Positions 19,501-60,178 are shown, counted from the first letter of the stretch. The stretch is 62,200 nt of DNA from a virus (IMGVR_UViG_3300028189_000014:1-62200); one strand, 5' to 3'. The notes: generated by a model from the sequence alone, not told the origin. Program-made: numbers and translations.

Positions 19501-22500
19501 TCAATCATTCAGATGCCTCATCGCAGGGATCTGGCTCCAGATAGGGATAGATCTATTAACACCGTTACCACTAAAGATAGAATCTACATGCCCGGCTGTT
19601 GGACCTAATAATCGAGTTGAAGTTTTCCCATTCCATCCTTGTGCATCCATAGCTGAGAACCCTATTTCTAGAGCGCCAAAACCTCCCGATCTACGGAATA
19701 TATTATAGGTGTAATCTCCCATGCCTTGTTTGGCTGTCGGATCGCGTTTACCCCAGTATTGGAGGAGTTCTCGAAGTTCTAGAGCTAAGCCTGCTAGTGG
19801 CAGCATGAAAAATGCGGCTAGAGCTATAGGCACAGACTTCGCAGGTAGGCCGTCTTGTTGTTTAACATTATTCCAGATACCTTCGAGCACCGTATGTTGG
19901 TATGCGTAGAAGAATGTTTTGAGGTGGGTTAGTAAACCAAATCTAGGATCGGACATGAACACCGGGCGCATTGCGTTATTCGGATTTACTACTGATTGAT
20001 CCACAAAAATCCCAATAGCATCTTGAACTCGCTGAGCCAATAACGCCGTATTCGGATCTTGTTCTAAATCCATGCTCATATCCTCTGCACGATTCCATAC
20101 CGGACGACCTAACTTATCCCATTGTTTTACTAAATCTGGGGTTAGTTTGAGCTCTTCTAAGAACTGGGTACTGTTCTCGTTCTGCTCAGTTATGCCATGT
20201 CTGATAATGAAATCCTCAGCAATAGACGCTGACATCACGCGGGACATATCAGTAAACCACTTCTGCCCGTTATATAAGAACAAATTCTTATTGGCTGTTT
20301 GTGCCCATGATGGCGCGGTATCTAACCCATATACTTCCAGCATTGCATGGTTCGCTAAGGTATCTTCTAAGAAGCCCATAGCCCGGTATCGCTGATAAGC
20401 CTCTTTGCGGTTCTTTACGGTACGTGCATACTGATGAAGAGCAGCTGATGCACCCTGAACATCTTTAGCGCGTAAGATAGGCCCTGCTAACTCAGGTATA
20501 GAGGCTACTGCGGTAAAGAGCAACACCATCCAGTTTTCCGCCGCCATAATATTATTCTGGTATTTACGCAACTGCGGATCCATATCTATACCCCGCTGTC
20601 CTAAGATTCCCTGCATCACGGTCTTAACACGGTTACGTGCTGTTGCATCAGGGATTGTGGCAATCTGATCGTTGAGTTTCTTAGCGGCATCGAAATAAGG
20701 CTCATCTCGCCCGTTGTCGACAATCTCGCCAAACAACCTACCGAACTCTGCGTGTCTGATCGACTTACGAACTGAGTTCATAAGTACAAACTCAGGGTCA
20801 GGATGTAGCCATCCGCCTTCGAGAAGATCCGCATTAGGGATCTGCATTAACTTGCCTCGTTTACGAACGGTGTTACCCGAAGGTGCATGTACTACATTTG
20901 GATCTAATGAAGTCTGATCTCGTAATATAGCATTTCGAAAATAGTCAGCATGAGTCTCATTCTCTACGAAATCATACTGCATCAAGAATTCATTAAACGC
21001 TTGTCCTTCCTGCTCTATCTTAGGGTTATTATACATTCGAGGGAAATGGTTAGTTACGCTCTCGAAGAACGGTACGGTGGACCCTAGATATTCAGTGAAT
21101 TTACGATGGACTTTGCGTAGTTCGACAGTCTTAGGATGCACTTCTGCGTCGGTTAACTGCTCATTTTGAACTTCACTCAGTATCTGGTCTTTCAGCCCCG
21201 GCGGTATAGATTTGAGCACTGTCTCATACGCTCCACCCCACTGCCGATCAAGCTGAGCAACTGCGACTAACCAGGGGCGTTGAATAGCACTAGTTGTTTG
21301 TGGACGTAGCCATAGCTTATCAGCAATAGCGTCAGCTCCCCATAACCGAAGCTGTTGATCCGCCGATAACAATGGGTACAGAACTTTCCTAGAACCTGAG
21401 AGAATCGCATTGATTCGAACCCGTGCTTGGTCGCGTAATTGCGGAGTTACTGCATTCAATAACGTTTCACGTAGTCGTTCAGTAAACGAGTCCAGCTCTT
21501 CTTCTGTAGGATTCGTTGTAGATGTGTCCTCTTCAGTTATAGATACAGAGTCTCGTTCATAGGCTGAGGGCTGTTCAAAGCCATAGCCGGGCGAATAACG
21601 TTTAGAGGTAACACCCTGCATATATTCAGAGAATGTTTGGTTCTGCTCAAACCGTCTCGACTTATTCTTATGCATCCGCTCATAAGCCGCTTTTAATCCT
21701 GCTTTGATCTCAGTGAATAATTGCTTCACTTTTTTAGCTAAGGATTGCTTCGTATCTGTAGATTCTGCAAGGAGACTATGTAATCCTTGCATACTGTCAA
21801 GATTACCTGAAGCTGCCCAAGCACTCATCTGGTCAGCGAACCATTCTCGGTAAGCATAAGGCTTATCCCAAGAACCCATCTCTGTTTCATAGGCTTTATA
21901 TAGAGCATCTTGTACTTCTTTCGGGGCTTTATGGAGAGCGTTACGCATAAATGCATGCCCAAACTCATGCCCTAAAGTAATCATCTGTACGGGGGCATCC
22001 CACTTGTTGTTTATATAGATAACGGCATGGTCTTTAAAATACCAAGTAGTCCCCATCTTATTTTTTTGTGCTAACCGACTAGTCATATCAGCTAGAACAT
22101 CTTCATCGACCAACGGGTTACGCAGCTTCGCATTCTGTTTAAGGATGCGTCCTACCGCCTGCATCTCTTTGTATTCTGAGAGAGCTCTTAGTTGGCGCAG
22201 AAGCTCGACTTTTTTAGCTCTCGCATTAGTCCTGACTTTCTTATTTTTTGCGTTTTCACCCTGTATCTTATTAAGTTCTTTCTGAATATTAAGCCATGCC
22301 TCGCCTCTATCTGAACGAACCAACTCTAGTTGTTTGGGGTTTAATACAGTTGACAGATCGTCAGGGAGTGCCAGTTCACTCTGGTCGACTATGTCCTGTA
22401 AGCCGTCGTTGTCAATTAGCATGACGTTGAACTTCGAGTTCGTCGCTTTAAGTAGTTGTACTACCGTGGGGCCTAACAGTTTCGCTGTTTTACCTACCGC

Positions 22501-25500
22501 TTTAACGTGAGGACCTAACATTTTTCCGCCAGCACTCGAGAGCACCGATTGCCAAGAACTACCCTGACTTACTGTACTATTAGGATCTGCTTTGTGGCCT
22601 CGGTTCCTAAATCCTGAGAGAATAAGGTCGCGCCATTGACGTTCGAACTTATGGTCAGACTGCGACACTTCAGTATCGTTATCTACAGTATCTAATATAG
22701 ACTTGTCGCCCGTGACGTAATCTTCGACTCCTTTACCGAACGCCGCGTTTTCACGTTGGACATTGAGCCAGTTGGCTAACTTAGTGGCGTGTTGGTCGAG
22801 TTTTAGAGACTCATTTTCTAGACGAGTAGCTTCTTCGTTTAAAGCGATTTGTTCCTCTGCATCTTGTAGGTTCTCATCATTCGCCTCCTCCCGGAGAGCA
22901 GTCGATTCTTTACGTAATGCCATAGTATACTTATGCACCTCAGCTATATCGTTGGATGTTTTAACTTCTAATTCTGCGCGGTAGCCTCGTTCTAGTTTAT
23001 CGAGTAGATCTATTTGTTTTATGAGGTTATTACTTTCTTCTGGAGTCCTCATATGATTCGGCTTGGCTGATATCTCACCGATCTGCTCTTGAAGAGCTCG
23101 TATCTGCCGTACCTTCACATCGTTATTAGCAATGTTCAGTTCTTGCTGAGTTACCTTATCTAAGGTGAGCATCTGTGTCGCCATTGTTGCGAGATGCATA
23201 TGGGTTTCTTGTAATACAGGATTCCCATCGCTTACCCGTTCATTTTTACCTGTTTCGGGATGGAATACGTACTGCGGCGCGAATGACTGTGCCGCATCTA
23301 ACATATCATTGATATGTTTCTTCAACGCGTAAGACGGATGAGATTCATCAGGTAATTTCTGACGACCTACAACTGCGCGTGACGATATGACTACATCTTC
23401 GTCTGCTGTGCCGTACTGGGATTCAGCTTTTTGGTCAACCTCTCCGGGTCTATGAGGCCCTAAGTCTGCTAGTCGCTTCGCTGCTTCGCGCGTATACTCC
23501 GCACGGGTTACAAGATCCTGCCCATAACCTAAGTTATCCCAGCTACTCAAAGCCGCATCTTTGCGGGCTTGGTCTGTAGTATTTAAATCAACCTGTTCGG
23601 TTATTTCAGGATCAGTGTTTACGTCTTGAACTTCTGACAACTTCTCAAGCTGCTCCTCCAAGAACATCATTGTTATCTTATCGTCAGGATCGAGTGATTG
23701 GCCTTCTTCTATATCCCGATACATTTTAAAGTACAGCTTCTCCCGCTCAGCTGTATATCGCTGACTCAACTCTATAGCTGCATCACCACGCTCATCTTTG
23801 TTAACCTCTTTATCTCTGAGTTTAGCGTGTAGCGCTGTCTCTGTTTCGTTCCTGAGTTCACTAGCTTGGAGATAAACGGTCTTCTTGAAAAAAGCCTCAC
23901 GCGCAGACGCTACCGTTGTTGATCGACGTTTTGACTCTGTTGATACTCCGGTCTCCTCATTTACATGGCTGACCATCGAATCGACAGTTCGATCCCCTGC
24001 TTTAGTCTTATAATTCCATATCCGACGATTATCCCAATTACTAAGATCTCGCCCTAGTAGATCTTCGTGTTCAATGCCTTTATCGCCATACTTTTCTGGA
24101 TTGCGACGAATTATTATTTCTAAAGATCGGATCAACGCTTCATATACATCAGCGGCTGACGGTTGGAGAATGGGCATTTTCTGCCCCCGCTCTTGCGCTA
24201 ACTTGAGCATCCCTAATCTAACTAACTCGATAGTGTCGTAGTTCTTGCCGTCTACAGTGACTATCTCAGCATCGCGGTCCTCTAAGCTATTCGCTTTTTT
24301 GTTGCCGCTGACTTGAGCTTTACGTAATAATGCTACTTCGCCAAACCGAACACCTTGGAAATTATTAGAATCCGTAGGGTACACAGAGAGGTAATGACTC
24401 TTCGGTATCGGATCGCCTTTGTAATCTTTTTCATCAGAGTATTCAGCGACTTCGATCCCTATAGTATGGTCAGGAAATTCTGCCTGTAGAGCCATCAGTT
24501 TCCGCTCTAGAGATTCAGACGGTTGTCCGATTTTCTCTCCTTTACTATGAGCTGCATAGGGCTTGCCTCTATCTTCATGGATCTCGTTCTGCCCTATGAT
24601 GAGTACTTCGGGAATACTCATCTCAAAACCACCACTCTCGAACACGTCAAATGCTCGCCACGTAGTACCCATTACTTTAGAAGTAGAATTGTTTAAGGCT
24701 TTATTAACCGCAACTGCGATTAAATCTCCTGCGATAGCATCGAATTTATCTTTGAGGGCTATATTATTTCCCTCCTCATCGAAACCAAAAGAAGGCATGT
24801 CCTCTGCCTTACTTTGTTTTTTCACGAAGGCTTCTTTCTCTTCCTTCGTTTTCAGAGAACTGTATTCAACAGCAGCTTCGCGTAATTTTTGTACTTTCGA
24901 GTACGCCTCAGTAGCCTTAGCTGACATTTCATCTAATGCAGCTTTGCGCCCCTCGGGAGTTGATGCTTTACCTAAAGCCTCAGCACCTTTCTCAAGAGAA
25001 TCTTTTAGCGCGTCATTAAATTCATTAAACGATTTAGGACTATCTGAATAGGCTTCTTTTACTTTGTCGACAAAGCTCTTAATCGTGTCGCCGTAAGCTG
25101 TGTGATCTGTGTTCGCATCATCCCTATGGGTGTTAAGCTGTTCGGTAAAGTTACCTATCTCGTTTGATGCATCTACAACTTTTTGATGAGATTCACCTAT
25201 TTTCTTAGCTGCCCAGTCAACACCTTGTCCTACTTTATGAGCACCGTATTGCGTAGCGGCAACGGGCGCAGATCCACCAAACGCCATGCCACCGCCAGCA
25301 GCGAAACCTTTGGAGAAGTCTTCTATAAGGCGTTGCCCGTTCTCGGGTGAGAATATGTCGTATTCGGGTTTATTAGCTTTAATCGCTAAGAAACTAATTA
25401 TAGATTGGATGTCTTCAGTGAATCCTTCTACCCCTGCAGTTATACCTACGCCTTTCGCCACCGTAGCGATAGTTTCCATGACGGTTTTAGGGTTCTTGCG

Positions 25501-26496
25501 CGCAACTTTAAAAACTTGTTTTAGTGCAGCTGCGACACCAACTACATCTACGGCAGCACCGGGGACTCCTGCAAGTAATGCCGCCGCCCCTGCTTTGTCA
25601 GGAGCAACGCCTTCTCTGATCTGATCTTTATAATACTCACCGACCATTAACGGATAGCTAGCTGTAGCCGCACCTACTAACGCTCCTTTCTTCTTCGCTT
25701 CGATTCGTAGTCCTCTAGCGAGCGCTTTCTTTGCTCCCGAACTTAACTTATCTACTAATTTCTTAGGATCTGTTTTGGGGTCAAAATTCTTAGCTGCTTG
25801 TTTTCGTGCAGCTTTTGCGTTGATGCCTAGACCCGTTTTAGATGGGTGGACATCCCAATCGAATATCCTCCGTATTTCATCGTGATATTTCTTAGGTACT
25901 TTATCTATTACTTTACTAACGGTTTTATAGGACGCTTCTAGATACTTAGGTCCTCTAAGCGTAGCACCTATAATACCTCCTGCGACCATAGGAACCATTT
26001 GAGCGAAATTCTCAGTTATCGCTTCAAGTATGTATGTGCCCGCCTTTGCAGGATCCCAGTCAACATCATATATAGATTCAATTTCAGCCGGATAATAACT
26101 AGCTTTATCTGCGTATTCTTCGCTGGTCTCCCGCCCAAAATCTGCTGCGGATTCAAATCCTGTAACCTCTGCAGCAGCTTCAATAGCTGAGCCTACATTA
26201 GAAACCGCGTTGTTAACCCCTCTGAGTATACCTCTCTGTGCGGCAGACTGATGCTGAAGATTCCCTTGACGTATTCGATTGTTATGCTGCTCGTCCCTTA
26301 TCGCTTTATCGTAGCGTAGGATATCCTCATCATTTAAAGCGTCTATGTCGAACTTCGGCGTATCTGCTGCGGTCTTTGCTACTGCTTGAGCATCTTTTTT
26401 TTCCTGTTCAGATACAGGAATATTCGATGCTTGTATCTTCGCCGATAAAGCTAAAATCTCGTCGTCAGATAGCGCATTTATGTCGAATCTGCTCAT
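19501..26496 (-). CDS. Giant internal virion / DNA-ejection protein with zincin-like motif
   Basis: 2331 aa, follows smaller ejection-type genes; hydrophobic Ala/Gly segments near N-terminus; LGHEFGHAF (HExxH) and REWFAD. Confidence 0.7.
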   Translation of the reverse strand: MSRFDINALSDDEILALSAKIQASNIPVSEQEKKDAQAVAKTAADTPKFDIDALNDEDILRYDKAIRDEQHNNRIRQGNLQHQSAAQRGILRGVNNAVSNVGSAIEAAAEVTGFESAADFGRETSEEYADKASYYPAEIESIYDVDWDPAKAGTYILEAITENFAQMVPMVAGGIIGATLRGPKYLEASYKTVSKVIDKVPKKYHDEIRRIFDWDVHPSKTGLGINAKAARKQAAKNFDPKTDPKKLVDKLSSGAKKALARGLRIEAKKKGALVGAATASYPLMVGEYYKDQIREGVAPDKAGAAALLAGVPGAAVDVVGVAAALKQVFKVARKNPKTVMETIATVAKGVGITAGVEGFTEDIQSIISFLAIKANKPEYDIFSPENGQRLIEDFSKGFAAGGGMAFGGSAPVAATQYGAHKVGQGVDWAAKKIGESHQKVVDASNEIGNFTEQLNTHRDDANTDHTAYGDTIKSFVDKVKEAYSDSPKSFNEFNDALKDSLEKGAEALGKASTPEGRKAALDEMSAKATEAYSKVQKLREAAVEYSSLKTKEEKEAFVKKQSKAEDMPSFGFDEEGNNIALKDKFDAIAGDLIAVAVNKALNNSTSKVMGTTWRAFDVFESGGFEMSIPEVLIIGQNEIHEDRGKPYAAHSKGEKIGQPSESLERKLMALQAEFPDHTIGIEVAEYSDEKDYKGDPIPKSHYLSVYPTDSNNFQGVRFGEVALLRKAQVSGNKKANSLEDRDAEIVTVDGKNYDTIELVRLGMLKLAQERGQKMPILQPSAADVYEALIRSLEIIIRRNPEKYGDKGIEHEDLLGRDLSNWDNRRIWNYKTKAGDRTVDSMVSHVNEETGVSTESKRRSTTVASAREAFFKKTVYLQASELRNETETALHAKLRDKEVNKDERGDAAIELSQRYTAEREKLYFKMYRDIEEGQSLDPDDKITMMFLEEQLEKLSEVQDVNTDPEITEQVDLNTTDQARKDAALSSWDNLGYGQDLVTRAEYTREAAKRLADLGPHRPGEVDQKAESQYGTADEDVVISSRAVVGRQKLPDESHPSYALKKHINDMLDAAQSFAPQYVFHPETGKNERVSDGNPVLQETHMHLATMATQMLTLDKVTQQELNIANNDVKVRQIRALQEQIGEISAKPNHMRTPEESNNLIKQIDLLDKLERGYRAELEVKTSNDIAEVHKYTMALRKESTALREEANDENLQDAEEQIALNEEATRLENESLKLDQHATKLANWLNVQRENAAFGKGVEDYVTGDKSILDTVDNDTEVSQSDHKFERQWRDLILSGFRNRGHKADPNSTVSQGSSWQSVLSSAGGKMLGPHVKAVGKTAKLLGPTVVQLLKATNSKFNVMLIDNDGLQDIVDQSELALPDDLSTVLNPKQLELVRSDRGEAWLNIQKELNKIQGENAKNKKVRTNARAKKVELLRQLRALSEYKEMQAVGRILKQNAKLRNPLVDEDVLADMTSRLAQKNKMGTTWYFKDHAVIYINNKWDAPVQMITLGHEFGHAFMRNALHKAPKEVQDALYKAYETEMGSWDKPYAYREWFADQMSAWAASGNLDSMQGLHSLLAESTDTKQSLAKKVKQLFTEIKAGLKAAYERMHKNKSRRFEQNQTFSEYMQGVTSKRYSPGYGFEQPSAYERDSVSITEEDTSTTNPTEEELDSFTERLRETLLNAVTPQLRDQARVRINAILSGSRKVLYPLLSADQQLRLWGADAIADKLWLRPQTTSAIQRPWLVAVAQLDRQWGGAYETVLKSIPPGLKDQILSEVQNEQLTDAEVHPKTVELRKVHRKFTEYLGSTVPFFESVTNHFPRMYNNPKIEQEGQAFNEFLMQYDFVENETHADYFRNAILRDQTSLDPNVVHAPSGNTVRKRGKLMQIPNADLLEGGWLHPDPEFVLMNSVRKSIRHAEFGRLFGEIVDNGRDEPYFDAAKKLNDQIATIPDATARNRVKTVMQGILGQRGIDMDPQLRKYQNNIMAAENWMVLLFTAVASIPELAGPILRAKDVQGASAALHQYARTVKNRKEAYQRYRAMGFLEDTLANHAMLEVYGLDTAPSWAQTANKNLFLYNGQKWFTDMSRVMSASIAEDFIIRHGITEQNENSTQFLEELKLTPDLVKQWDKLGRPVWNRAEDMSMDLEQDPNTALLAQRVQDAIGIFVDQSVVNPNNAMRPVFMSDPRFGLLTHLKTFFYAYQHTVLEGIWNNVKQQDGLPAKSVPIALAAFFMLPLAGLALELRELLQYWGKRDPTAKQGMGDYTYNIFRRSGGFGALEIGFSAMDAQGWNGKTSTRLLGPTAGHVDSIFSGNGVNRSIPIWSQIPAMRHLND

Positions 26497-38332: not shown

Positions 38333-38814
38333 GGCTCTGTTGGAGGTGGCAACACAAAGTCATCGGCCCCTGCTAGCTTAACTAGCTCGGCATCATCCAA
38401 ACGCTCCAATTGCTCCACTTTATGCAAGTGTAAACTCTGTGTTTGCACCTTCTCTGGCTCGTACAAACCGTGCATCTTACCCAATTCCCGTACCGCTGCG
38501 ATTTCCTCAGTACTGGTCGCTGATTTTCTATGGGCTTCAAACAACATTATGGTCAGCTTATCCCTTGTCACCTTTATATTATCTAACTCTTCGCTTCGTA
38601 GATGACCTAATAATGCTTGAATCTTCTCCTGCGCCATTAATGAGCGCCCGGAATGGGCATGGCTTTTATACCCCGCAGCTTTTGCAGCTTGGGATGGGGT
38701 TAACCCTCTCAATGCGTACAGCACAAACTGCTCTTGCTGTGCAGTTAGTGGTGTTATGTCTGCGTGGGGGTAGCACGACTGTAAGTACGCTATATCACCC
38801 GCTGTTATAGACAT
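38329..38814 (-). CDS. terS: Terminase small subunit
   Basis: LTAQQEQFV..., AAKAAGY, ELGKMHGLY. Confidence 0.85.
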   Translation of the reverse strand: MSITAGDIAYLQSCYPHADITPLTAQQEQFVLYALRGLTPSQAAKAAGYKSHAHSGRSLMAQEKIQALLGHLRSEELDNIKVTRDKLTIMLFEAHRKSATSTEEIAAVRELGKMHGLYEPEKVQTQSLHLHKVEQLERLDDAELVKLAGADDFVLPPPTEP

Positions 38815-38833
38815 ATTTCTCCTATGATTTGGG

Positions 38834-38866
38834 CATAAGCATAGCTTATATTGAAAAATTTAGCAA
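38834..38866 (-). promoter_or_regulatory. Putative sigma70 promoter of the structural arm overlapped by a 17-bp operator
   Basis: TTGCTA (38866-38861)-N17-TATGCT (38843-38838); operator CATAAGCATAGCTTATA 38834-38850. Confidence 0.6.
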
Positions 38867-39027
38867 AAAAATTCAGTAATAACCGTGTGTCTTCATATAT
38901 ATGGATGTTCAGTATTTCCGTACCGCCGTCCCCGATTTGCTTTTTGGCATCCCCGATTCCAAAACTCGTACCTCGTTTTGGGCGAAGTGAGAACGAGGGT
39001 CAATTAAGGCATAAAGGAGATACAGAT

Positions 39028-39264
39028 ATGAACAAAGTAAGATTAGCATTCCATCTATTACTAAGTCGTGAAGGGTCTACAGTAGTTGGGCTCTCCATCC
39101 TAGTGGCTATGATCGTATGGCAAATCATATTCTTCCTAGTAACTAAGAGCGTCTGGCTCTTACTCATCCCGATAGTGACCATCGGTTGCTATGTATTCCA
39201 AGATGATATCAAGAACGCTTGGTATCGCGGTCGTCAGCACGTTGCTGGCGTTAAACGTATTTAA
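39028..39264 (+). CDS. Small membrane protein, first rightward gene
   Basis: AAGGAG RBS before ATG 39028; two hydrophobic segments. Confidence 0.65.
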   Translation: MNKVRLAFHLLLSREGSTVVGLSILVAMIVWQIIFFLVTKSVWLLLIPIVTIGCYVFQDDIKNAWYRGRQHVAGVKRI

Positions 39265-39278
39265 ATAAGGAGAAACGT

Positions 39279-39473
39279 ATCCGACACACTACAGCTTATA
39301 ACTACTTCAAGGCAACTGTCCGAGTCTACAACGACGACAGTTATCTCTCTCAACGCGTACAACGTCAACGTACTACATACGTTGCTGACCTATTCGAACT
39401 CTTCGATATCCCTATCGCAGAGGGATCAGTACTCTTCTATGAGTTCTGGGATAAAGACGAGATTGCCGGTTAA
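39279..39473 (+). CDS. Small protein with ATC at the expected start position
   Basis: AAGGAG-N6-ATC, then a 64-codon open frame filling the gap. Confidence 0.45.
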   Translation: MRHTTAYNYFKATVRVYNDDSYLSQRVQRQRTTYVADLFELFDIPIAEGSVLFYEFWDKDEIAG

Positions 39474-39486
39474 CCACCAAGTAACT

Positions 39487-39515
39487 CCCAGTCCACTACG
39501 TGGGCTGGGTTGAAC
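39487..39515 (+). promoter_or_regulatory. Hairpin element H1
   Basis: CCCAGTCCAC-TAC-GTGGGCTGGG-TTGAAC. Confidence 0.55.
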
Positions 39516-39546
39516 TTTGAATCAATGATAACTAAGGAGATATACC

Positions 39547-39702
39547 ATGTACATAGACTTACCAGACGAAGATCTCGCGGAGATCGAAGCAACTAACCTC
39601 ATGATCATCGAATGCTTCGCAGAAGCTGAGCTTGACGCAGCTATCGAAGCTGCAAAGGAACGCTTAGTGCAAGACACCGCGCTAGAACTTAGCGTATTTT
39701 AG
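39547..39702 (+). CDS. Small acidic protein (51 aa)
   Basis: AAGGAGATATACCATG; MYIDLPDEDLAEIEATNL... Confidence 0.65.
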   Translation: MYIDLPDEDLAEIEATNLMIIECFAEAELDAAIEAAKERLVQDTALELSVF

Positions 39703-39729
39703 CAACTCTGGTCTTAAGAACAGGGTTGA

Positions 39730-40220
39730 AGGACAACATGTGGACTACATGTTGAAATTCAACCTGTTACGCTCCTAAGCCCATGATTCATAAGGCAAAA
39801 AAACCCAAAAAAGGCCATATTATGGCAAAAGACAACATGTGGGGTTCGCCTTAGTAGCATATACGTATATTAGTGTGTTTTTTCTTAGTATTTCTTTGTT
39901 TTTTTATTAGTTTTAATAGGTACTAGTCTTTAATAATATGTAGTCCTATAAAAAACAAGGAAATTCATTAGTAATATCAATAACTTAGAGCGTAACAGGT
40001 TGTCCAAAAACCTGTAGTCCACATGTTACCACATGTTACGCTCTGTAACTCGTTGATTCTTAACGAGTTTTTCACCTACTGATGACCCCTAAAAACACCT
40101 GTTTTGGTACATCTGTAGTCCTTGTACATTTTTTGTACAATACTTAAAGTATTACATTAACTTCGTGGAACATAAATTGTTTCACAACCTGTAGTCCTTT
40201 TTGTTCAACCTGTAGTCCTT
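39730..40220. repeat. Putative replication origin (iteron-like repeats, AT-rich core, IHF-like sites)
   Basis: Six TGTAGTCC/GGACTACA copies, 15-bp inverted repeat, AT-rich 39870-39960, no ORF. Confidence 0.6.
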
Positions 40221-40250
40221 TTTTAAATCCATTTAACTAGGAGAAATACC

Positions 40251-40412
40251 ATGCAAACACCCATATGGGACGACGGATCCCCGGTAGAAGAAGAGCACCT
40301 CGAAGAGTACTTCACCCAACGCTACGCAGAGTTAGAGCATGAAATGCTCGACTTTGAGTGGGAGGAGTTCATCCAATCAAAGGTTGATGCTCAGCTCGCT
40401 ACGCGAGACTGA
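40251..40412 (+). CDS. Small acidic protein (53 aa)
   Basis: AGGAGAAATACCATG; ends AQLATRD inside hairpin H2. Confidence 0.65.
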   Translation: MQTPIWDDGSPVEEEHLEEYFTQRYAELEHEMLDFEWEEFIQSKVDAQLATRD

Positions 40413-40419
40413 GTTGAAC
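40389..40419 (+). promoter_or_regulatory. Hairpin element H2 (31-bp exact repeat, copy 1)
   Basis: GCTCAGCTCGC-TAC-GCGAGACTGAG-TTGAAC. Confidence 0.6.
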
Positions 40420-40437
40420 CCATAAAAGGAGTATGTC

Positions 40438-40575
40438 ATGTTCACCATCAAATCAATACAGCTAGGTTATATATTTGCCTACAGAATCTGGGATGTAAAG
40501 GCTAACCGCCCTGTATCCCCATTGTTCGCTGAGCTTGCACAAGCTGAGCGTGAATTGGCTATCTTAGAATTATAA
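40438..40575 (+). CDS. Small hypothetical protein (45 aa)
   Basis: AAGGAG RBS; MFTIKSIQLGYIFAYRIWD... Confidence 0.55.
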   Translation: MFTIKSIQLGYIFAYRIWDVKANRPVSPLFAELAQAERELAILEL

Positions 40576-40592
40576 GCATAGCTAATAACCAT

Positions 40593-40622
40593 GCCTGCAC
40601 ACTCCGGTGTGTGGGCTTTTTT
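40593..40622 (+). terminator. Intrinsic terminator
   Basis: GCCTGCACAC-TCCG-GTGTGTGGGC followed by T6. Confidence 0.7.
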
Positions 40623-40646
40623 GTATCAACAAAAGGAGTACTAACC

Positions 40647-40835
40647 ATGTCAAATACTAAGCGTTTCTTAGAACACATCGAAGACCAAGCCCGCCACATG
40701 AGCAAAGCAGAGCTCATGGCAGAGTATCCATACACGGGCGTAGCCCAGTTATGGGACGAGGTCAATGGACCTCAGCAAGCTGAGTTACCGAACAGCTACG
40801 CACCATTCGACGATGCAAACCACCCCGAATCGTAA
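40647..40835 (+). CDS. Small hypothetical protein
   Basis: AAGGAG RBS; MSNTKRFLEH... Confidence 0.6.
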   Translation: MSNTKRFLEHIEDQARHMSKAELMAEYPYTGVAQLWDEVNGPQQAELPNSYAPFDDANHPES

Positions 40836-40837
40836 TA

Positions 40838-41014
40838 ATGGACTACGCCATAACTTTGTTCCTAGGGCTCACAGCTCTGGGGACAGGCTTCGCCGGGTAC
40901 GCAGTCTTATCAACCACAAAACTTACCTTGGCTACTGGCTCTGTTGCAGCCCTTAGCCTCTTATCCAGCGTCCTGAGTTGGACGTTGTTCTTTATATCGT
41001 ACGTGACACTTTAA
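40838..41014 (+). CDS. Small membrane protein (58 aa)
   Basis: MDYAITLFLGLTALGTGFAG..., two hydrophobic segments. Confidence 0.5.
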   Translation: MDYAITLFLGLTALGTGFAGYAVLSTTKLTLATGSVAALSLLSSVLSWTLFFISYVTL

Positions 41015-41093
41015 ACCCATTTAGGGGAGGGGACTTTTTTGGGTTATTTAGCCTATTTTCTCCCCCTCTCAAACCTACACAGGAGTATAGAAC

Positions 41094-41294
41094 ATGCAAA
41101 TAATCAACTTATTGATAACTATCTGGAAATCGCTTCCATGGTATACCAAAGCCCTAACTATGTTCTTCTGGGCAACCCTCATCATAGCCATCTATACAGG
41201 GCATATCACCCTCTGGCTAACCTACTATTTCTACTACCTAATCATCACATTCTGCATTGGTCTGTATATAGGCTATAAGGAGGCACACTCATGA
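41094..41294 (+). CDS. Small membrane protein
   Basis: AGGAG RBS; two TM-like segments. Confidence 0.6.
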   Translation: MQIINLLITIWKSLPWYTKALTMFFWATLIIAIYTGHITLWLTYYFYYLIITFCIGLYIGYKEAHS

Positions 41295-41749
41295 GCACTA
41301 AAAAGAACGCATCAATGGTCGGGATCATATCAGCCCACAAAATACTACTATGCAGCACTAAGAAAAATCCAGAGTTCTGGCAGCCCGTAGGTGGTGGGCA
41401 GCAAGGTCATGAAGACCCACGTAATACTGCTATGCGAGAACTATGGGAAGAAACGGGCGTTGTCCTAGGCGACACACAGCTACTAAAAGAACGTTGTGTG
41501 CACCCCTCTAAAACAGGGGGGAAAGTTACTTTCTACACAGTAGAATACTCCGTCGCTTCTAGGTACTCAGAATATGAACACTTAGAAGATTTTCTCGAAG
41601 AACAGGACGAAATAGCAGATTTTAAATGGGTTACACCCGCTGACGCACTAGCAAGGCTACCCATGATGTCTGCCACTAAGCTGTTTCTCTGGCAACTACG
41701 TTACGAAATTTTATGTGACCAAATAGCTCAGCTCGCTACGCGAGACTGA
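41291..41749 (+). CDS. Nudix hydrolase
   Basis: Nudix box GGQQGHEDPRNTAMRELWEETGV. Confidence 0.9.
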   Translation: MSTKKNASMVGIISAHKILLCSTKKNPEFWQPVGGGQQGHEDPRNTAMRELWEETGVVLGDTQLLKERCVHPSKTGGKVTFYTVEYSVASRYSEYEHLEDFLEEQDEIADFKWVTPADALARLPMMSATKLFLWQLRYEILCDQIAQLATRD

Positions 41750-41756
41750 GTTGAAC
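41726..41756 (+). promoter_or_regulatory. Hairpin element H3 (31-bp exact repeat, copy 2), directly before RNAP
   Basis: Identical to 40389-40419. Confidence 0.6.
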
Positions 41757-41798
41757 TACAAACTATGTGATTAATCAATTAAATTGGAGTACATCATC

Positions 41799-43469
41799 AT
41801 GGAAGCTCAGATATTAGAGTATCTAAATAAGCAATACAGCTATGAGAGCAAAGCGCTCCGTATAGCTAAGTTGAAAGAGCGTCAGCTAACACCGCTAGCC
41901 ATCTCGGCTAAGCTATGGACGGCACTCTGCCGCACCCAGCAGGACAAAACTGCAATACAGAACGTAGCCACACGCCTAGGTACTAGCCTCGGCTATACGG
42001 ATCAGCTCGACGCAGTTAAAACTGGCGCTGAGCTGTTGGCAATCTGTCAACATCAAGGATGGTACACGCTTGATATGACCCGTTATGGCACCTATGTGCT
42101 ACCTAACTTACCTAAAGAAGCGTTGATAAAATCCAACTTCCCCACCTTCAAGCCCAACAAATGGAGTAGTAACCATAATGGTGAAGACTCTATTATATTA
42201 GGTGGCGGGATGAAACATCACAATCAAGCACAGTCGTATGACGTGCTTAATATCCTACAGAATATAGAATGGTGTATAGATACCGAGGTTCTACGTTATG
42301 AGAAGAACCCGAAAGCTAAGCACCACTCCCAGAGAACCCGTGCTGACTTCAATGCTATATATAACGACTTAATAGGTCGTGGCTTCTACTTCAAATGGCG
42401 TTACGACATGCGCGGGCGTGGATTCATCCACAGTTATTTCTTAAACTTCCAAAGTCATGAATATGACAAGGCTCTGTTATCACCTCGTAAAAAGGTAATT
42501 ACCGAGAACCTCGGTAACCTTAAGATAGCCGTAGCTAACGAAGCAGGGCACGATAAGCTCCTGTTCGAAGAGCGTATAGCCTGGTTCGATGCACAGCTTG
42601 AGAAAGGCTTCAATACCGAAGAATTCAAATACCCCATACTAGGACGCAAAGCATTACGAGCCTACGCCCTAGCAGAACAGGGACTGCCTAGTAATTACAT
42701 GATGGGGCTAGATGCTACTGCCTCGGGCTTACAGATCATGGCGGCATTAATTGGCTGTAAGATCACAGCGAAAGCCTGCAACTTGATCTATTCAGGCACA
42801 CGAGAGGATCTGTACACACTCGTAGCTGATACGATGAATGCTGAGCTATCACCAGCTGACTATGTAGACCGTAACATGGTGAAAGATCCTGTAATGACTC
42901 ACTATTACAATAGTATCAAAGAACCACGTAAAGCGTTCAACGATGCACAGCTACAGGCGTTCTACAACGCATTGGATGGGCTCTGCCCCGGTGCCGTAGA
43001 CGTTATGGATACGATCAACGCCTTCTGGAATAAGCGGACACTTGAGCACAGTTGGACTCTCCCTGACGGGCACCGCTCAGTTGTCCCTGTCATCGAAACA
43101 GTAGACAAACGTGTTGAGGTAGATGAGCTGAATCACCGTCGCTTCGCTTATATCTACAAAAAGAATATGCCATCACGTAAGTCAACGTCCTTAGTGCCTA
43201 ACATTATTCACTCGGTCGATGCCTACGTTGCCCGTGAGATGGTAAGGCGCTGTCCGTTCGACATTGTGCATATTTTCGATTGCTTCTACTTCTACCCAGA
43301 TAATATGGACGAAGCCTCACGTATATACCGTGAGATCCTAGCAGATATCGCACAGAGCAATCTGTTAGCTGACATCTTATCGGAAATTAGCGGTAAGAAT
43401 ATAAGCATTGCTAAAGATAGTGACGATTTACACATCGACATCCTTACTAGCAAATATGCGATTTCTTAG
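41799..43469 (+). CDS. Single-subunit DNA-dependent RNA polymerase (T7/N4-RNAPII superfamily), ~556 aa
   Basis: DMRGR, motif A GLDATASGLQ, motif B RNMVKDPVMTHYY, PNIIHSVDA, motif C HIFDCF; GGAG RBS before ATG 41799. Confidence 0.9.
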   Translation: MEAQILEYLNKQYSYESKALRIAKLKERQLTPLAISAKLWTALCRTQQDKTAIQNVATRLGTSLGYTDQLDAVKTGAELLAICQHQGWYTLDMTRYGTYVLPNLPKEALIKSNFPTFKPNKWSSNHNGEDSIILGGGMKHHNQAQSYDVLNILQNIEWCIDTEVLRYEKNPKAKHHSQRTRADFNAIYNDLIGRGFYFKWRYDMRGRGFIHSYFLNFQSHEYDKALLSPRKKVITENLGNLKIAVANEAGHDKLLFEERIAWFDAQLEKGFNTEEFKYPILGRKALRAYALAEQGLPSNYMMGLDATASGLQIMAALIGCKITAKACNLIYSGTREDLYTLVADTMNAELSPADYVDRNMVKDPVMTHYYNSIKEPRKAFNDAQLQAFYNALDGLCPGAVDVMDTINAFWNKRTLEHSWTLPDGHRSVVPVIETVDKRVEVDELNHRRFAYIYKKNMPSRKSTSLVPNIIHSVDAYVAREMVRRCPFDIVHIFDCFYFYPDNMDEASRIYREILADIAQSNLLADILSEISGKNISIAKDSDDLHIDILTSKYAIS

Positions 43470-43484
43470 TGGACTCCGTCCACT
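43468..43484 (+). promoter_or_regulatory. Hairpin element H4
   Basis: AGTGGAC-TCC-GTCCACT perfect stem; template loop C-GGA-G. Confidence 0.45.
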
Positions 43485-43534
43485 TAAATGATTTTTAACC
43501 GAGCTAAATAGCTCACAAATACTGGAGAAATACC

Positions 43535-43954
43535 ATGGCTAACAAAGCAACTACTACCTATGACGACGAAACCTATTTTTTCTTACAACTAGGCAACCAA
43601 CGTGTACGTTTTGTACCTGTTGAAGCCTTTGCGGGGACTATCACCGAAGCTGGTGTGTATAACTTCCTTAGCACTAAAGCCATCGTTGGTGTAACAGCCC
43701 CACGTACCAGCGGTAAGAATGCAGGTAAACTTGGCTTTACTGTTAACGGCACCCAAGGCAAACGCACTAGCGTTATTGGGTTCATTAACTTCTATGAAAG
43801 CACAGCTTGTGCTACCTCTACAGATACCGAGCTTGGCGCTGAGAAAGGCAAGCTAGAAATGCTGTTGAAGAAAATGAAACGTACTGACGTAACTACACCT
43901 TACACTGATGAGCAAAATGAGTCATTCGCAGATGACTTAGGCTTAGCAGCGTAA
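43535..43954 (+). CDS. Hypothetical protein, candidate RNAP accessory / ssDNA-binding factor
   Basis: Directly after RNAP, GGAGAAATACCATG RBS, aromatic/basic core with acidic tail. Confidence 0.5.
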   Translation: MANKATTTYDDETYFFLQLGNQRVRFVPVEAFAGTITEAGVYNFLSTKAIVGVTAPRTSGKNAGKLGFTVNGTQGKRTSVIGFINFYESTACATSTDTELGAEKGKLEMLLKKMKRTDVTTPYTDEQNESFADDLGLAA

Positions 43955-43967
43955 CTTTTACCTCTTG

Positions 43968-43990
43968 GGGAGCTTCGGCTCCCTTTTTTT
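43968..43990 (+). terminator. Intrinsic terminator
   Basis: GGGAGC-TTCG-GCTCCC followed by T7. Confidence 0.85.
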
Positions 43991-44009
43991 ATGCCAGGAG
44001 ATTAATCGA

Positions 44010-44297
44010 ATGAGCCAATACAACTACCCAACGACAGCATTGCTATCCAAAGCTCAACACGTACGCCTTAAAAATTACGCTGCAAGTGAAGGTATTAGCG
44101 TCAGCAAGATACTTAGAAGTTATGTAGATGCCATATGTCCCCGCCCTTCTCCAGGACGAAAGAGTGGGATTAAGAATTATCTATATGGACAAGAACAGCC
44201 TGTAAAGAGCCCTACCAAAGCTATTAAAGATATTATGGACGCAATCGACCCCAATCAATACGAAATCGTGTTGATAAGAAAAATTCACCAGCCATAG
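44010..44297 (+). CDS. Ribbon-helix-helix-like DNA-binding protein
   Basis: TTALLSKAQHVRLKNYAASEGISVSKILRSYVD; AGGAG RBS. Confidence 0.65.
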   Translation: MSQYNYPTTALLSKAQHVRLKNYAASEGISVSKILRSYVDAICPRPSPGRKSGIKNYLYGQEQPVKSPTKAIKDIMDAIDPNQYEIVLIRKIHQP

Positions 44298-46436: not shown

Positions 46437-46895
46437 ATGGATAGCCAACAGGAGTACCTACGCAACAGGGTCTACGAAGAGCTACTCCGTATAAATGCTG
46501 GTAGACACCTAGTGTCATACCAATTATTCCCTAAAGCAGGAATCATTGAGCTAGATTGCAGAGGAGATCATGTTTTTAGAGTAAATGACTTAGGGTACAT
46601 GACCTACACCTTAGGGCTGCCTATCAACCAGAAAGCAGAACGTATCTTGAGGATAAAAAACAGCATGCTTGCAAATTACCAACGCAATCAGGAAGGGAAA
46701 TGGTTGTGGAGCTATGAAGACACACACCATGATATTTTAAACGTACTAAAGGAAGGAGTAACCACCAATGAAACCCAGCGAACTGACCGAGCTCTTAAAA
46801 GCCTCGCTTATAAACGTGACCTTGAAACCCGGCGAATCCCGTCTATCAGCAATGGTATGGGGCGCGCCTGGCATCGGGAAATCACAGATCATTAA
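46437..46895 (+). CDS. Hypothetical protein (3' end overlaps ATPase gene)
   Basis: ORF track only. Confidence 0.45.
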   Translation: MDSQQEYLRNRVYEELLRINAGRHLVSYQLFPKAGIIELDCRGDHVFRVNDLGYMTYTLGLPINQKAERILRIKNSMLANYQRNQEGKWLWSYEDTHHDILNVLKEGVTTNETQRTDRALKSLAYKRDLETRRIPSISNGMGRAWHREITDH

Positions 46896-47799
46896 ACAGC
46901 TAGCAGAAGAACACGACTATCGCTTTTTAGATATACGCCTATCTCAGATGGGTCCCGAAGACATGCAGGGGGTACCTTTTGTAGTCGTCGAAGATTCTGA
47001 AAAACGAACTGCTTGGGGTACACCACTTATGTACCCTAAAGAAGGTGACAAAAAAACCCTGATGTTCTTCGATGAAATCACCCATGCTCCACCTGCAGTA
47101 CGCAAATCTGCCTTTCAGATCATCCTAGACCGACAAATAGGACAACATAAATTCCCTGAAGACACAGTTATTGTCGCAGCAGGAAACCGCGTTGAAGATC
47201 GCTCCGGTGCACAAGAAATGGAGTTGGCTCTAAAGAACCGCTTTATGCACTGCGACTTAGAGGTAGATCGTGATGATCTAGCAAGTTGGTGGGTGAGGAA
47301 CGATAAAGACTCTAGAATCTTATCATTTCTACGTGCCGCACCGCATCATATACATGATATGCCTGAAGGTGTCACAAGTGAGAACGCTTTCCCGTCGCCA
47401 CGTACATGGGATTTCGCTTCGCAAATTCTCAGGACTGTCCCTAAACACCTACGCCTACAAGCTTTGAAAGGAACTGTCGGAACAGGTCCTGCTAAAGAAC
47501 TCGAAGTACACTTACGTACAGAACTCCCCGATATGGAGAAACTATTGGCAGAACCGTGGAGTTTCAAACCGCCGGAAGACCGTTCAGTTATGTACGCTAT
47601 AGCCAACGCGCTTACAACTTACGTAACTCGAGCTACGATACAAGGTTTCTGTGATATTGCAGAGCAATTAGCTTCGATCAACCACCAACAGGATTTTGCT
47701 GTTACTATGACGCGTGACTTGTTCATTAACAAACCTGAACTAACTCAAACCTCAAGCTATATTGCTTGGGCAGCTAAACATAAACATTTGGTGATTTAA
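46768..47799 (+). CDS. MoxR-like AAA+ ATPase
   Basis: WGAPGIGKS, FFDEI, AAGNR, ALKNRF, FPSPRTW. Confidence 0.9.
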   Translation: MKPSELTELLKASLINVTLKPGESRLSAMVWGAPGIGKSQIIKQLAEEHDYRFLDIRLSQMGPEDMQGVPFVVVEDSEKRTAWGTPLMYPKEGDKKTLMFFDEITHAPPAVRKSAFQIILDRQIGQHKFPEDTVIVAAGNRVEDRSGAQEMELALKNRFMHCDLEVDRDDLASWWVRNDKDSRILSFLRAAPHHIHDMPEGVTSENAFPSPRTWDFASQILRTVPKHLRLQALKGTVGTGPAKELEVHLRTELPDMEKLLAEPWSFKPPEDRSVMYAIANALTTYVTRATIQGFCDIAEQLASINHQQDFAVTMTRDLFINKPELTQTSSYIAWAAKHKHLVI

Positions 47800-48961: not shown

Positions 48962-50128
48962 ATGGCTGCCCCACGTAGAATTAAAAAAGCAAAAAACGTT
49001 AAGCAATACGACCGTATGGCTAAAGCCCGAACACGTCTTATCCTCGACGAACCTTTTTTTGCCACCTTACTCCTTAAACTCCATTTAATAGAAGACACAT
49101 CCATCCCTACTGCCGCAACTGATGGCAGAGTAATTCTATATAGTCCTGAATATACAGAGACGATAACCGACGCAGAATGCGTAGGGCTATTAGCTCACGA
49201 ACTCATGCATTGTGTGTTCTACCATATGACGCGTCGAGGTCATAGGACTCCCTATAGATATAATTTAGCCGGAGACTACGTAATAAATCCCGGAATTACA
49301 GCATCAGGTATGACTTTGCCCCCCGGGGCCTTGGACGACCCTCAGTATTACAACATGACCACAGAACAAGTATACGACTTACTCCCCGAGGACGAGGAAG
49401 GCAATAACCCGATTGGCCCTGATGGATTTCCTCAAGATTTCCCACCAACTGACTGGGTGTTCGATGACAGCAAAGCCGCTATGTCCCCAGCTGAGAAAAG
49501 CCGCGTTGAAGAAGAATGGGAGCTTAATGTACAAGAGGCCGTACGAAATGCAGAAGCTGCAGGAAAAATGCCTGCAGGACTCGAATCTATTATTGAAAGT
49601 TTTGGTAAGCCCCAAGTTAATTGGCGCGCTGCACTACGACGATTCTTCACCGTGTATTCAAAACGCGACTATTCATGGAGCAAAGTAAAACGCCGTTTAA
49701 TCTCACAAAATATTTACCTTCCAAGTCTACACTCAGAAGATTTAGACAATCTCGTTATCGGCGTTGATACCTCTGGTTCTGTCTCCGATGAAGAACTTGC
49801 CTTATTCAGCGATGAAATCAACAGCATACTCGTGAATTTTACAGCTACTGTCACTGTAATCTATTGTGATTCCGTAATACAAGAAGTTGAAACTTTTGAA
49901 ACTGATGAATTACCCAGAGCTTTAAGTGATGAATTCCCCGGACGAGGAGGTACTAGACTTACACCTATTCTTGAATATATAGAGACCATGAATTTAGATC
50001 CTAGTTGCATGGTGTATCTAACCGATGGAGGGATATGGGACAACCCACCTGCCCCATCATACCCTGTGTTGATCGTAACTACAGACGAAGAAATTTCAAT
50101 TGGCGAAAACATAAAAATGGAGCGGTGA
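48962..50128 (+). CDS. Metallopeptidase + vWA protein (DUF2201-like)
   Basis: TAATDGR, LAHELMH, MIDAS DTSGS, GRGGT, YLTDG. Confidence 0.9.
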   Translation: MAAPRRIKKAKNVKQYDRMAKARTRLILDEPFFATLLLKLHLIEDTSIPTAATDGRVILYSPEYTETITDAECVGLLAHELMHCVFYHMTRRGHRTPYRYNLAGDYVINPGITASGMTLPPGALDDPQYYNMTTEQVYDLLPEDEEGNNPIGPDGFPQDFPPTDWVFDDSKAAMSPAEKSRVEEEWELNVQEAVRNAEAAGKMPAGLESIIESFGKPQVNWRAALRRFFTVYSKRDYSWSKVKRRLISQNIYLPSLHSEDLDNLVIGVDTSGSVSDEELALFSDEINSILVNFTATVTVIYCDSVIQEVETFETDELPRALSDEFPGRGGTRLTPILEYIETMNLDPSCMVYLTDGGIWDNPPAPSYPVLIVTTDEEISIGENIKMER

Positions 50129-59425: not shown

Positions 59426-59450
59426 GCCCGCCTCGTGCGGGCATTTTTTT
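59426..59450 (+). terminator. Intrinsic terminator
   Basis: GCCCGC-CTCGT-GCGGGC-A followed by T7. Confidence 0.8.
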
Positions 59451-59463
59451 GGAAGGAGAAAAA

Positions 59464-59736
59464 ATGAAAACATATACGGTAGAAGAATTAACGGATTTGC
59501 TAGATAAGCACGGCATTGAGTACTGTGATGTTCATGATAGCGATCCAAACTATTTCCGAGTCGAATTTGATAAGGACAAACAGATAGTAAGACCAGTCTT
59601 TTTTGATAAACAAGATCTTATCGCTATTGGTCAGGCCGAAAAATTACTGAACGAGACCGGGAGATTCGGCATTCTCGAACACATTAGACTCTTAACTGAT
59701 TCTGTATTTGATCATGAAAAACAGGAATGGAGGTGA
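59464..59736 (+). CDS. Hypothetical protein preceding the repeat-linked array
   Basis: AAGGAG RBS before ATG 59464. Confidence 0.55.
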   Translation: MKTYTVEELTDLLDKHGIEYCDVHDSDPNYFRVEFDKDKQIVRPVFFDKQDLIAIGQAEKLLNETGRFGILEHIRLLTDSVFDHEKQEWR

Positions 59737-59739
59737 GCG

Positions 59740-59991
59740 ATGACAACTTATAGTGACCTATGCGACTCAGTAGCTGAGAGAGTTGTAGAAGACATGGATA
59801 TGAAAACTCTGTGTTGCTACGCCTACGAAACCCTGTTCAATATCTACCAAGAATCCCCAAAACTAATGCTGGATTTAGTTAACGACCTTGAGATGTGGGA
59901 GGGGGAAGATGGGTGTCCTGAATATCTACAGATCATCAAGGACAAAATAGCTGAGGGAGAAGCATGGAAGGAGGAGGTGAGCGATGAGTGA
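59740..59991 (+). CDS. Array gene 1, small acidic protein
   Basis: Starts in junction; ends EEVSDE. Confidence 0.7.
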   Translation: MTTYSDLCDSVAERVVEDMDMKTLCCYAYETLFNIYQESPKLMLDLVNDLEMWEGEDGCPEYLQIIKDKIAEGEAWKEEVSDE

Positions 59992-60175
59992 GTTCATGCT
60001 ACTAACCCCTAAGTTTATTGTTACTAAAGATGGATATTGGGGACGAGACTTATTGAATTCGCTTACCGAATTCTGTGAAGATCATTACAAACAATTTAAT
60101 TGTTACCCAATGGAATATGAGTATGAGGGGGTCGTGTACCCTTACGATGATTTTAAAGATCTTATAGGGAGGTGA
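59984..60175 (+). CDS. Array gene 2
   Basis: Starts in junction. Confidence 0.7.
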   Translation: MSEFMLLTPKFIVTKDGYWGRDLLNSLTEFCEDHYKQFNCYPMEYEYEGVVYPYDDFKDLIGR

Positions 60176-60178
60176 GCG

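Follow-up and report, generated by a model that had tools for sequence, protein, structure and literature searches.

Four short hairpins surround the early region and the small RNA polymerase (RNAP) gene of a marine phage, and they raise the question of whether they are promoters and, if so, which enzyme reads them. The phage is known from the virus record IMGVR_UViG_3300028189_000014:1-62200, a stretch of 62.2 kb (here called the window) whose completeness is rated 99%. The original prediction had proposed that the hairpins, H1 to H4, may be promoters for the small RNAP, by analogy with phage N4. Comparison of the locus with N4, with the N4-like phage LUZ7 and with relatives that carry a similar RNAP makes it, in our judgement, fairly likely that H1–H4 are single-stranded hairpin promoters of the N4/LUZ7 kind. 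The enzyme that reads them would probably be the single-chain, RNAPII-type polymerase of 556 amino acids (aa) encoded between H3 and H4 (41799..43469, + strand).

All four hairpins lie on the + strand where the original prediction had placed them. H1 (39487-39515) reads CCCAGTCCAC-TAC-GTGGGCTGGG-TTGAAC and has a 10-bp stem with one T.G pair and its loop centre at 39498. H2 (40389-40419) and H3 (41726-41756) are identical 31-nt copies, which a repeat search grouped as one family; their 10-bp stem (CTCAGCTCGC / GCGAG-A-CTGAG) contains a single bulged A and is combined with the same TAC loop and TTGAAC tail as in H1. H4 (43468-43484, or 43468-43491 with T43489-G43490-A43491) is AGTGGAC-TCC-GTCCACT, a perfect 7-bp stem. 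Each hairpin is tied closely to genes: H2 holds the last seven codons and the stop of an open reading frame (ORF; 40251-40412), H3 holds the end of a NUDIX gene (41291-41749) and lies ~62 nt before the RNAP start codon, and H4 overlaps the stop codon of the RNAP gene. The ORFs that enter H2 and H3 both terminate in AQLATRD*, as had been noticed. Likewise, the claim that each hairpin precedes a ribosome binding site was borne out, with a Shine–Dalgarno sequence and ATG (SD+ATG) downstream of all four, 39-63 nt from the loop centre (51 nt for H1).

Read on the coding strand, H1–H4 have a C-TNC-G triloop in common. On the template strand the loops read C-GTA-G in H1–H3 and C-GGA-G in H4, as predicted, and thus have the GNA triloop with C:G closure that is typical of N4 promoters. 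H1 differs from H2/H3 at three stem positions that are altered on both sides with pairing kept, and at a fourth altered on one side (the alignment was read by eye; the MAFFT gap lay one column off), while the loop and the TTGAAC tail are conserved. The earlier description of stems that differ and still pair therefore stands, with the T.G pair of H1 as its one wobble. As DNA, the template strands fold with energies of -7.4 (H1), -9.3 (H2) and -5.9 kcal/mol (H4). A further common feature lies beyond the stems, where T-G-A occupies positions +13, +14 and +15 from the loop centre in H1 and H4, and is found one place further in H2/H3 because of the bulged A. From this motif we predict transcription starts on the + strand at G39512 (H1, +14), G40416 (H2, +15), G41753 (H3, +15) and G43490 (H4, +14). 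A start within TTGAAC would provide a rationale for the conservation of this tail.

For comparison, N4 and LUZ7 were scanned for hairpins with a perfect stem and a C-G-closed 3-nt loop that reads T-N-C on the gene strand. The first 50 kb of N4 contain six such sites, three of which coincide with known promoter positions, the other three being far from the early region. The known ones are P1 (GTTGC-TTC-GCAAC-TTAT-GG, template loop GAA), P2 (AAGAAGC-TCC-GCTTCTT-TTGG, template loop GGA) and P3 (AAGCTGC-TCC-GCAGCTT-TTGG, template loop GGA). They were placed in the N4 record partly by means of what we take to be the P2 sequence. The other guide was a review (PMC4496689), which puts three early promoters in the left 10% of the N4 genome, each with a hairpin centred at -11 whose 3-nt loop contains a sheared G:A pair, and has them read by the injected virion RNAP. 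For LUZ7, the scan covered the first 20 kb. It returned one TAC hairpin at 796 and a pair of them upstream of ORF14 (Drc), at 3668 and 3700, with a spacing of 32 nt. TCC hairpins with stems of 6-7 bp lie at 9528 and, 15 nt beyond the stop codon of RNAP2, at 8244; both carry T+13 G+14. LUZ7 early hairpin promoters, according to PMC9163698, have stems of at least 4 bp, a conserved 3-nt loop and a G start 13-14 nt from the hairpin centre, and Drc is driven by two tandem early starts 33 nt apart, as seen by ONT-cappable-seq. The same text describes four LUZ7 middle promoters as GC-rich hairpins with stems of at least 6 bp and 3-4-nt loops, ~15 bp before a G start, and attributes them to RNAPII with Drc.

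Further comparative evidence came from the TCC class, to which H4 belongs. Relatives of the 556-aa RNAP are encoded in 58 IMG/VR loci, and we examined 170 nt after the end of the RNAP match, dropping eight duplicate, three short and two cut-match loci. A TCC triloop hairpin with a stem of at least 5 bp follows the RNAP gene in 19 of the 20 distinct loci at ≥ 44% RNAP identity, and in none of the 25 distinct loci at ≤ 42% identity. These 19 syntenic hairpins have nine different stem sequences and are closed by C-G in 18 cases and by T-A in one. When 22 TCC hairpins were aligned (including two each from LUZ7 and N4), the C-TCC-G core was invariant, and five of the seven stem pairs changed on both sides. 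H4 itself undergoes a compensatory A-T to T-A change (GTGGAC/GTCCAC to GTGGTC/GACCAC) in close relatives and in one contig of the DNA run X4. Such stem turnover at one syntenic place is independent evidence for a conserved hairpin.

Past the loop centre, T-R-A was found exactly at +13 to +15 in 17 of 35 distinct TCC hairpins, as compared with 44 of 1133 hairpins with other loops, and a purine occupies +14 in 30 of the 35. Its distance from the loop is unchanged with stems of 5, 6 or 7 bp, which speaks for a single composite element whose spacing is set by the loop. In a set of 205 distinct C:G-closed triloop hairpins whose stems have at least 5 bp, TCC (31) and TAC (21) were the most frequent loops, the next loop accounting for 11; TNC loops were found 61 times on the gene strand versus 19 times on the other. 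Individual genomes keep to one loop: locus L044 has TCC in all five copies and L050 has TAC in all six, and at three homologous sites (stem of at least 4 bp) the two differ mainly at the central loop base, and at two of these in a tail base too. Loops that are uniform within a genome and switch between genomes are the pattern expected of a promoter–polymerase pair. The copies in these two loci (~39% RNAP identity) are 4-5-bp hairpins of the form (T)AGGC-TNC-GCCT(A)-TTAGG, present five to six times upstream of the RNAP gene. As a separate observation, the RNAP gene of three ~40%-identity relatives is followed by an 8-10-bp hairpin with an ATT/AAT loop, TGTTCGAG-ATT-CTCGAACA (L050 7614, L052 5972, L059 7550).

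The TAC class represented by H1–H3 is distributed much more narrowly. A covariance model of H1–H3 found exactly three sites in the window and, over all loci, 14 sites at E ≤ 1e-11: the three of the window, three each in two near-identical loci, and five in L009, where a T>C change makes the H1-type stem perfect. The 55 loci of relatives at ≤ 50% RNAP identity gave nothing convincing with this model (best E 0.65). Degenerate pattern scans of all IMG/VR recovered the H1–H3 type in the same three contigs only, and three more contigs came from a scan of metagenomes, two of them near-identical and the third at 88% RNAP identity. The expectation that relatives with such an RNAP would carry the hairpins thus held for the TCC class at ≥ 44% RNAP identity, and for the H1–H3 type only within the close lineage. 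Since the two loop classes occupy different positions in relatives and in LUZ7, they should best be kept apart. TAC hairpins of relatives that possess a virion polymerase have 4-7-bp stems and are G-rich at +10 to +12, nearer to the 11 nt of N4.

Among relatives at 88-96% RNAP identity, the number of hairpins and the genes between them vary, with TAC/TCC copies of 3/1 in the window, 3/3 in the close relative G010, 5/2 in L009 and 2/2 on the 4.3-kb contig L086. In G010, L009, L085 and L086 a TCC hairpin lies 35 nt after H3, directly before the RNAP gene; in L086 it completes a series of three (TAC, TAC, TCC). In L088, a relative at 48% identity, two TCC hairpins are spaced 33 nt from each other; overall, tandem hairpins in relatives come in twos or threes, 30-35 nt apart. 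The window, L007 and L009 together have 17 hairpins, and every one of them has SD+ATG after it, at a distance of 39-80 nt from its loop centre. In close relatives the TCC hairpin between H3 and the RNAP gene is GTGGTC-TCC-GACCAC; compared with L007 (5940-5975), ~17 nt are missing from the window at 41756-41775, and the downstream TATGTGATTAA is kept.

Variable copies and changing neighbours could also point to termination or pause signals that end early units, or to mobile palindromic boundary elements with no role in transcription. Some 48%-identity relatives do have a T-rich run after the TCC hairpin, and the LUZ7 hairpin at 8244 is followed by a canonical terminator within ~25 nt. In the window, however, a scan for U-tract terminators flagged none of the four hairpins, in keeping with the original prediction, while it did flag the neighbouring U-tract terminators at 40593-40616 and 43967-43984; H1–H4 thus do not qualify as rho-independent terminators. 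Moreover, two or three tandem terminators right before the essential RNAP gene would block its expression, and the loop letters are invariant and strand-specific, which neither terminators nor recombination palindromes need. Mobility as such is compatible with hairpin promoters, because a promoter cassette can move too. Taken together, we consider termination or mere mobility very improbable. Three other identities were tried and rejected. The 29-nt core of H2 had no exact match in 185,579 species genomes, which disposed of a CRISPR or host repeat. GTTGAAC fits the integron attC consensus GTTRRRY, but there is no inverse core upstream and the flanks are unpaired. TTGAAC as a sigma-70 -35 box was dropped because none of the four hairpins gave a promoter-like call.

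We then considered the reading enzyme. Hairpin promoters call for a cognate T7-family polymerase, and the 556-aa protein is an enzyme of this type. It matches Pfam RNA_pol (E 6.5e-21), and in the PDB it matches 6dt7_B (RNAP2) over residues 241-489 (E 3.6e-40) and, more weakly, 6dt7_A (RNAP1) over residues 99-233 (E 0.006). Judged by these similarities, it is a single-chain homologue of the N4 RNAPII heterodimer that comprises both subunits. Residues D305, K362, Y370 and D494 are conserved among 14 of its relatives. The nearest named relatives are the split RNAP1/RNAP2 of N4-like Pseudomonas phages (LUZ7-type RNAPII), at ~34% identity, and metagenomes contain many such single-chain polymerases (549 proteins at E ≤ 1e-10 among 8000 candidates scored). 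Downstream of H4 lies a 139-aa gene without a family (43535..43954, + strand), bounded on its far side by the 43967-43984 terminator; it looks like a one-gene unit driven from H4. Its product matched no Pfam or PHROG family, no PDB chain and not N4 gp2, and has only three close homologues. No Drc or gp2 homologue is recognisable in the window.

The competing candidate is a polymerase delivered with the virion that has escaped recognition, either as a domain of a 2331-aa virion protein (19501..26496, - strand) or as the small RNAP itself in packaged form. The early short-stem TNC hairpins of N4 and LUZ7 are read by an injected virion RNAP, according to PMC4496689 and PMC9163698. The 2331-aa gene lies after the capsid genes, where N4-like phages have their virion RNAP (N4 gp50), and since H1–H3 lie upstream of the small RNAP gene, another enzyme must act first. 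In contrast, the protein itself gave no sign of a polymerase in sequence and feature searches. It had no PDB match, no BLASTP similarity to N4 gp50 or its mini-vRNAP, and none to the 4003-aa (G009) or 2077-aa (G006) virion-polymerase homologues of relatives. Its match to Pfam was sub-threshold, a feature search with residues 500-1750 returned unnamed viral clusters and weak leads to large polyvalent-protein (LPD) domains, and its C-terminus matches KPP25-type virion proteins at 25% identity; KPP25, which we checked, has no RNAP. Neither the N4 mini-vRNAP nor the G009 polymerase domain found anything when searched against all six frames of the window, and the N4 and G009 domains likewise detected no virion RNAP in G010 (97% complete). 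The same queries do match giant polymerase homologues in G009, G008, G006 and G003, showing that the method works and that the lineage of the window is one without a recognisable virion RNAP. The G006 homologue is seemingly split or shortened (contig L066, 241-6474 and 8124-11873), its 2077-aa ORF and the adjoining ORFs matching different portions of the G009 polymerase domain. Finally, a temperate phage with a repressor would be expected to begin with host RNAP. A virion-delivered reader is therefore improbable in our view.

With no virion RNAP detectable, the 556-aa enzyme is the only phage polymerase left, and together with the KPP25-like virion genes this makes it the most likely reader of the hairpins. 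The original proposal of promoters for the small RNAP thus fared well in its first part, as loop, closing pair, strand, position and T-G-A all match N4 and LUZ7 elements; that the small RNAP is the enzyme is a point we infer. Negative supercoiling would extrude the inverted repeat, and the template strand would form a hairpin with a C:G-closed 3-nt loop, 5'-GTA-3' in H1–H3 or 5'-GGA-3' in H4. The T7-family polymerase would then recognise loop, stem shape and junction, and initiate at the purine of T-G-A 14-15 nt past the loop centre, i.e. at the G of TTGAAC in H1–H3 and at G43490 in H4. The first polymerase molecules would be made by host RNAP, after which H1–H3 would raise the expression of the small early genes and of the polymerase's own gene, and H4 would open a downstream unit, possibly including replication genes.

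Several results count against this mechanism, and some of them favour an action of the hairpins in RNA, which the original prediction had named as the main alternative and which is still the main rival. The T.G pair of H1 on the + strand becomes an A.C mismatch on the template strand, weakening the template-strand DNA fold from -9.1 to -7.4 kcal/mol; H1 is the single informative case for comparing wobble with A.C mismatch across the hairpin family. The confinement of H1–H3 to the window and its close relatives reduces their covariation to two stem versions and one point change. The TCC sets were picked by a perfect-stem scan, so that their 93% pairing cannot count as independent evidence. The 139-aa gene of the window is unrelated to the genes that come after the TCC hairpin in relatives; what the hairpin accompanies is thus the 3' end of the RNAP gene, as would also suit a 3'-end signal. 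An RNA run, X20 (share 0.08), contributed three short contigs (41031-41181, 43002-43191, 43640-43884), for which DNA carry-over is possible, and these reveal no transcript ends; no transcript start was observed. Contigs from DNA runs are interrupted at the H2/H3 repeat, which is usual for assemblers.

Other points of this kind concern the known enzymes and promoters. N4's own RNAPII is reported to act on AT-rich linear promoters, not on hairpins. The N4 virion RNAP is reported to need a purine at the template loop centre (-11) and to contact a G at -8. At the loop centre H4 has G and H1–H3 have T, and the template -8 is G only in H2/H3, with A in H1 and H4. Both are traits of the N4 enzyme, not of the hairpin-promoter class, and the LUZ7 Drc hairpins also have T at the template loop centre. 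The 7-bp stem of H4 is within the lengths mapped in N4 and LUZ7, and the 10-bp stems of H1–H3, with their bulge or mismatch, are longer than all of them. Stems longer than in N4 had been noted as a concern from the start; it applies to H1–H3, and is weakened by the report in PMC9163698 that LUZ7 RNAPII acts on GC-rich hairpins with stems of at least 6 bp. The LUZ7 TCC hairpins at 8244 and 9528 may be two of these middle promoters.

According to the RNA alternative, the hairpins are processing sites for an RNase III-like or phage nuclease, or 5'/3' stabilising stem-loops, and cut the early transcript into gene-sized pieces. Phage T7 has RNase III sites around its own polymerase gene 1 at which the early transcript is cut. 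H1–H4 are among the most stable local RNA folds of the + strand (-18.5, -15.7, -17.1 and -9.0 kcal/mol, respectively; z -2.9 to -4.9 versus shuffles), and they lie exactly at gene boundaries, overlapping stop codons. The T.G pair of H1 is legitimate, as G.U, only in RNA or on the coding strand, and the TCC hairpin stays after the RNAP gene even though the next gene changes. Yet stems of 5-10 bp are short for RNase III, and we know of no RNA rationale for an invariant C-UNC-G triloop. An Rfam scan of 38700-44200 with E up to 10 gave three chance-level matches, none of which overlaps a hairpin, and the spacing of T-R-A is constant relative to the loop, not to the end of the stem. On the template strand, the letters of this triloop spell the GNA loop that N4 promoters require (PMC4496689), and in N4 and LUZ7 these same elements have been mapped as promoters (PMC4496689, PMC9163698). 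Collectively, this makes an action in RNA rather unlikely.

The genome around the hairpins appears to be a mosaic. The structural genes occupy the - strand between 38814 and 2606, in that direction, and include the terminase subunits, the portal, the major capsid protein and the 2331-aa virion protein; early and replication genes follow on the + strand from 38851. The major capsid protein is nearest to that of Pseudomonas phage KPP25 (49% identity). A tyrosine integrase (1398-2384) and an S24-peptidase repressor-like gene make the phage look temperate. An ATPase gene (46768-47799) and an HNH-endonuclease-like gene (48962-50128) belong to PHROG families with the same product names as N4 gp24 and gp25, respectively, a likeness by product name only. 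By gene content, then, the genome is a mosaic of KPP25-like virion genes with an N4-like early module (polymerase, ATPase and HNH), integrase and S24 repressor, and it lacks the combination of giant virion-encapsidated RNAP and N4-type virion genes that marks the Schitoviridae. At the DNA level, 39400-44000 matched none of 50,697 phage records. A repeat at the ends of the record (24-53 = 62094-62123, within ends 1-130 and 62071-62200) indicates that it is probably a circular or terminally redundant unit of ~62,070 bp.

Two further features of the window are candidates for host-RNAP control of the first transcript. One is a 550-bp non-coding stretch among the early genes (39703-40250), which may be an origin or early control region. 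Its AT-rich core is flanked by the arms of a 40-nt inverted repeat (39735-39774 / 39988-40027), and AACCTGTAGTCC occurs in it three times, with variants besides; this repeat resembles the left flank and 5' arm of the close relatives' TCC hairpin, AACCTGTGGTC-TCC. The other is a quasi-palindrome, TATAAGC-N3-GCT(A/T)ATA, of which ~14 copies lie between 789 and 58665, mostly at module starts (e.g. 791, 1056, 19474, 31968-, 35114-, 38836, 40573, 43402, 48011, 53161, 53519 and 58651). Its asymmetric flanks follow the gene strand, a -10-like TAATAT often comes after it, and a TTGACT box lies 18 nt upstream of one copy, which precedes the capsid gene. The motif may represent a network of repressor operators or a promoter element (we first took it for a linear promoter of the small RNAP), or serve as both. 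Elsewhere, GGAGGTGAGCGATGA occurs seven times in 59729-61284, where it supplies the ribosome binding site and start codon to a row of small genes past a terminator at 59426.

Hairpin promoters are known already, mapped in only a few N4-like phages. What is new here is that a lineage without a virion polymerase retains them, the phage being temperate, with virion genes of the KPP25-like type and a minimal polymerase that is fused. Titles from a narrow literature search on N4 RNAPII, hairpin promoters and LUZ7/Drc pointed to no such lineage, and promoter finding by RNAPII-type enzymes is still described as unresolved in PMC4496689 and PMC9163698. It is quite possible, if short of probable, that the N4-type middle module (minimal polymerase plus extruded-hairpin promoters) is portable and was acquired by a temperate, KPP25-like podophage in which no polymerase is ever injected, with the 556-aa enzyme alone recognising GNA hairpins of two loop classes. 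If so, the ability to read hairpin promoters would extend beyond the giant virion enzyme and belong to the RNAPII lineage as well, and promoter logic would be modular and transferable between unrelated virion types. The compact pair would be unrelated to T7 promoters and among the smallest structure-specific polymerase/promoter pairs known, and it would offer a handle on loop-based specificity, given the concerted change between TAC and TCC loops from one relative to another. This lineage isolates the promoter question to a small enzyme and two or three short DNA elements. If the elements act in RNA, they would be an ordinary processing signal.

How do H1–H4 compare with known systems? Promoter-early stem-loop (PeSL) cassettes of the T4 type combine a sigma-70 promoter with a separate stem-loop. 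Like the hairpins here, they are repeated modules that border small early genes, with variable copy number and flanks; unlike them, they have a separate sigma-70 promoter, whereas in the window, where no sigma-70 match was found, the hairpin itself would be the promoter. N4 and the window both have a C:G-closed GNA template loop, the core C-TCC-G is common to H4 and P2/P3, and stem identity is free provided that pairing is kept. P3 lies ~49 nt before gp15, the RNAP1 gene, much as H3 precedes the RNAP gene by ~62 nt. N4 differs in its stems (5-7 bp, versus 7-10 bp in the window), in its start 11 nt from the loop centre (likely 14-15 nt in the window), and in having a virion RNAP, where the window has a temperate phage with non-N4 virion genes and no detectable enzyme of this kind. 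LUZ7 also has a virion RNAP, and in addition a split RNAPII and Drc, in place of which the window has a fused enzyme, no detectable virion RNAP and no recognisable Drc. As to the hairpins, the early TAC loops of LUZ7 include a tandem pair ~33 nt apart, as seen in the relatives of the window, and a GC-rich TCC hairpin directly follows the gene for the large RNAPII subunit, like H4. H1–H3 join the TAC loop of LUZ7 'early' hairpins to a long stem and a spacing like those of the 'middle' ones, and this long-stem TAC/TTGAAC hairpin is a new form.

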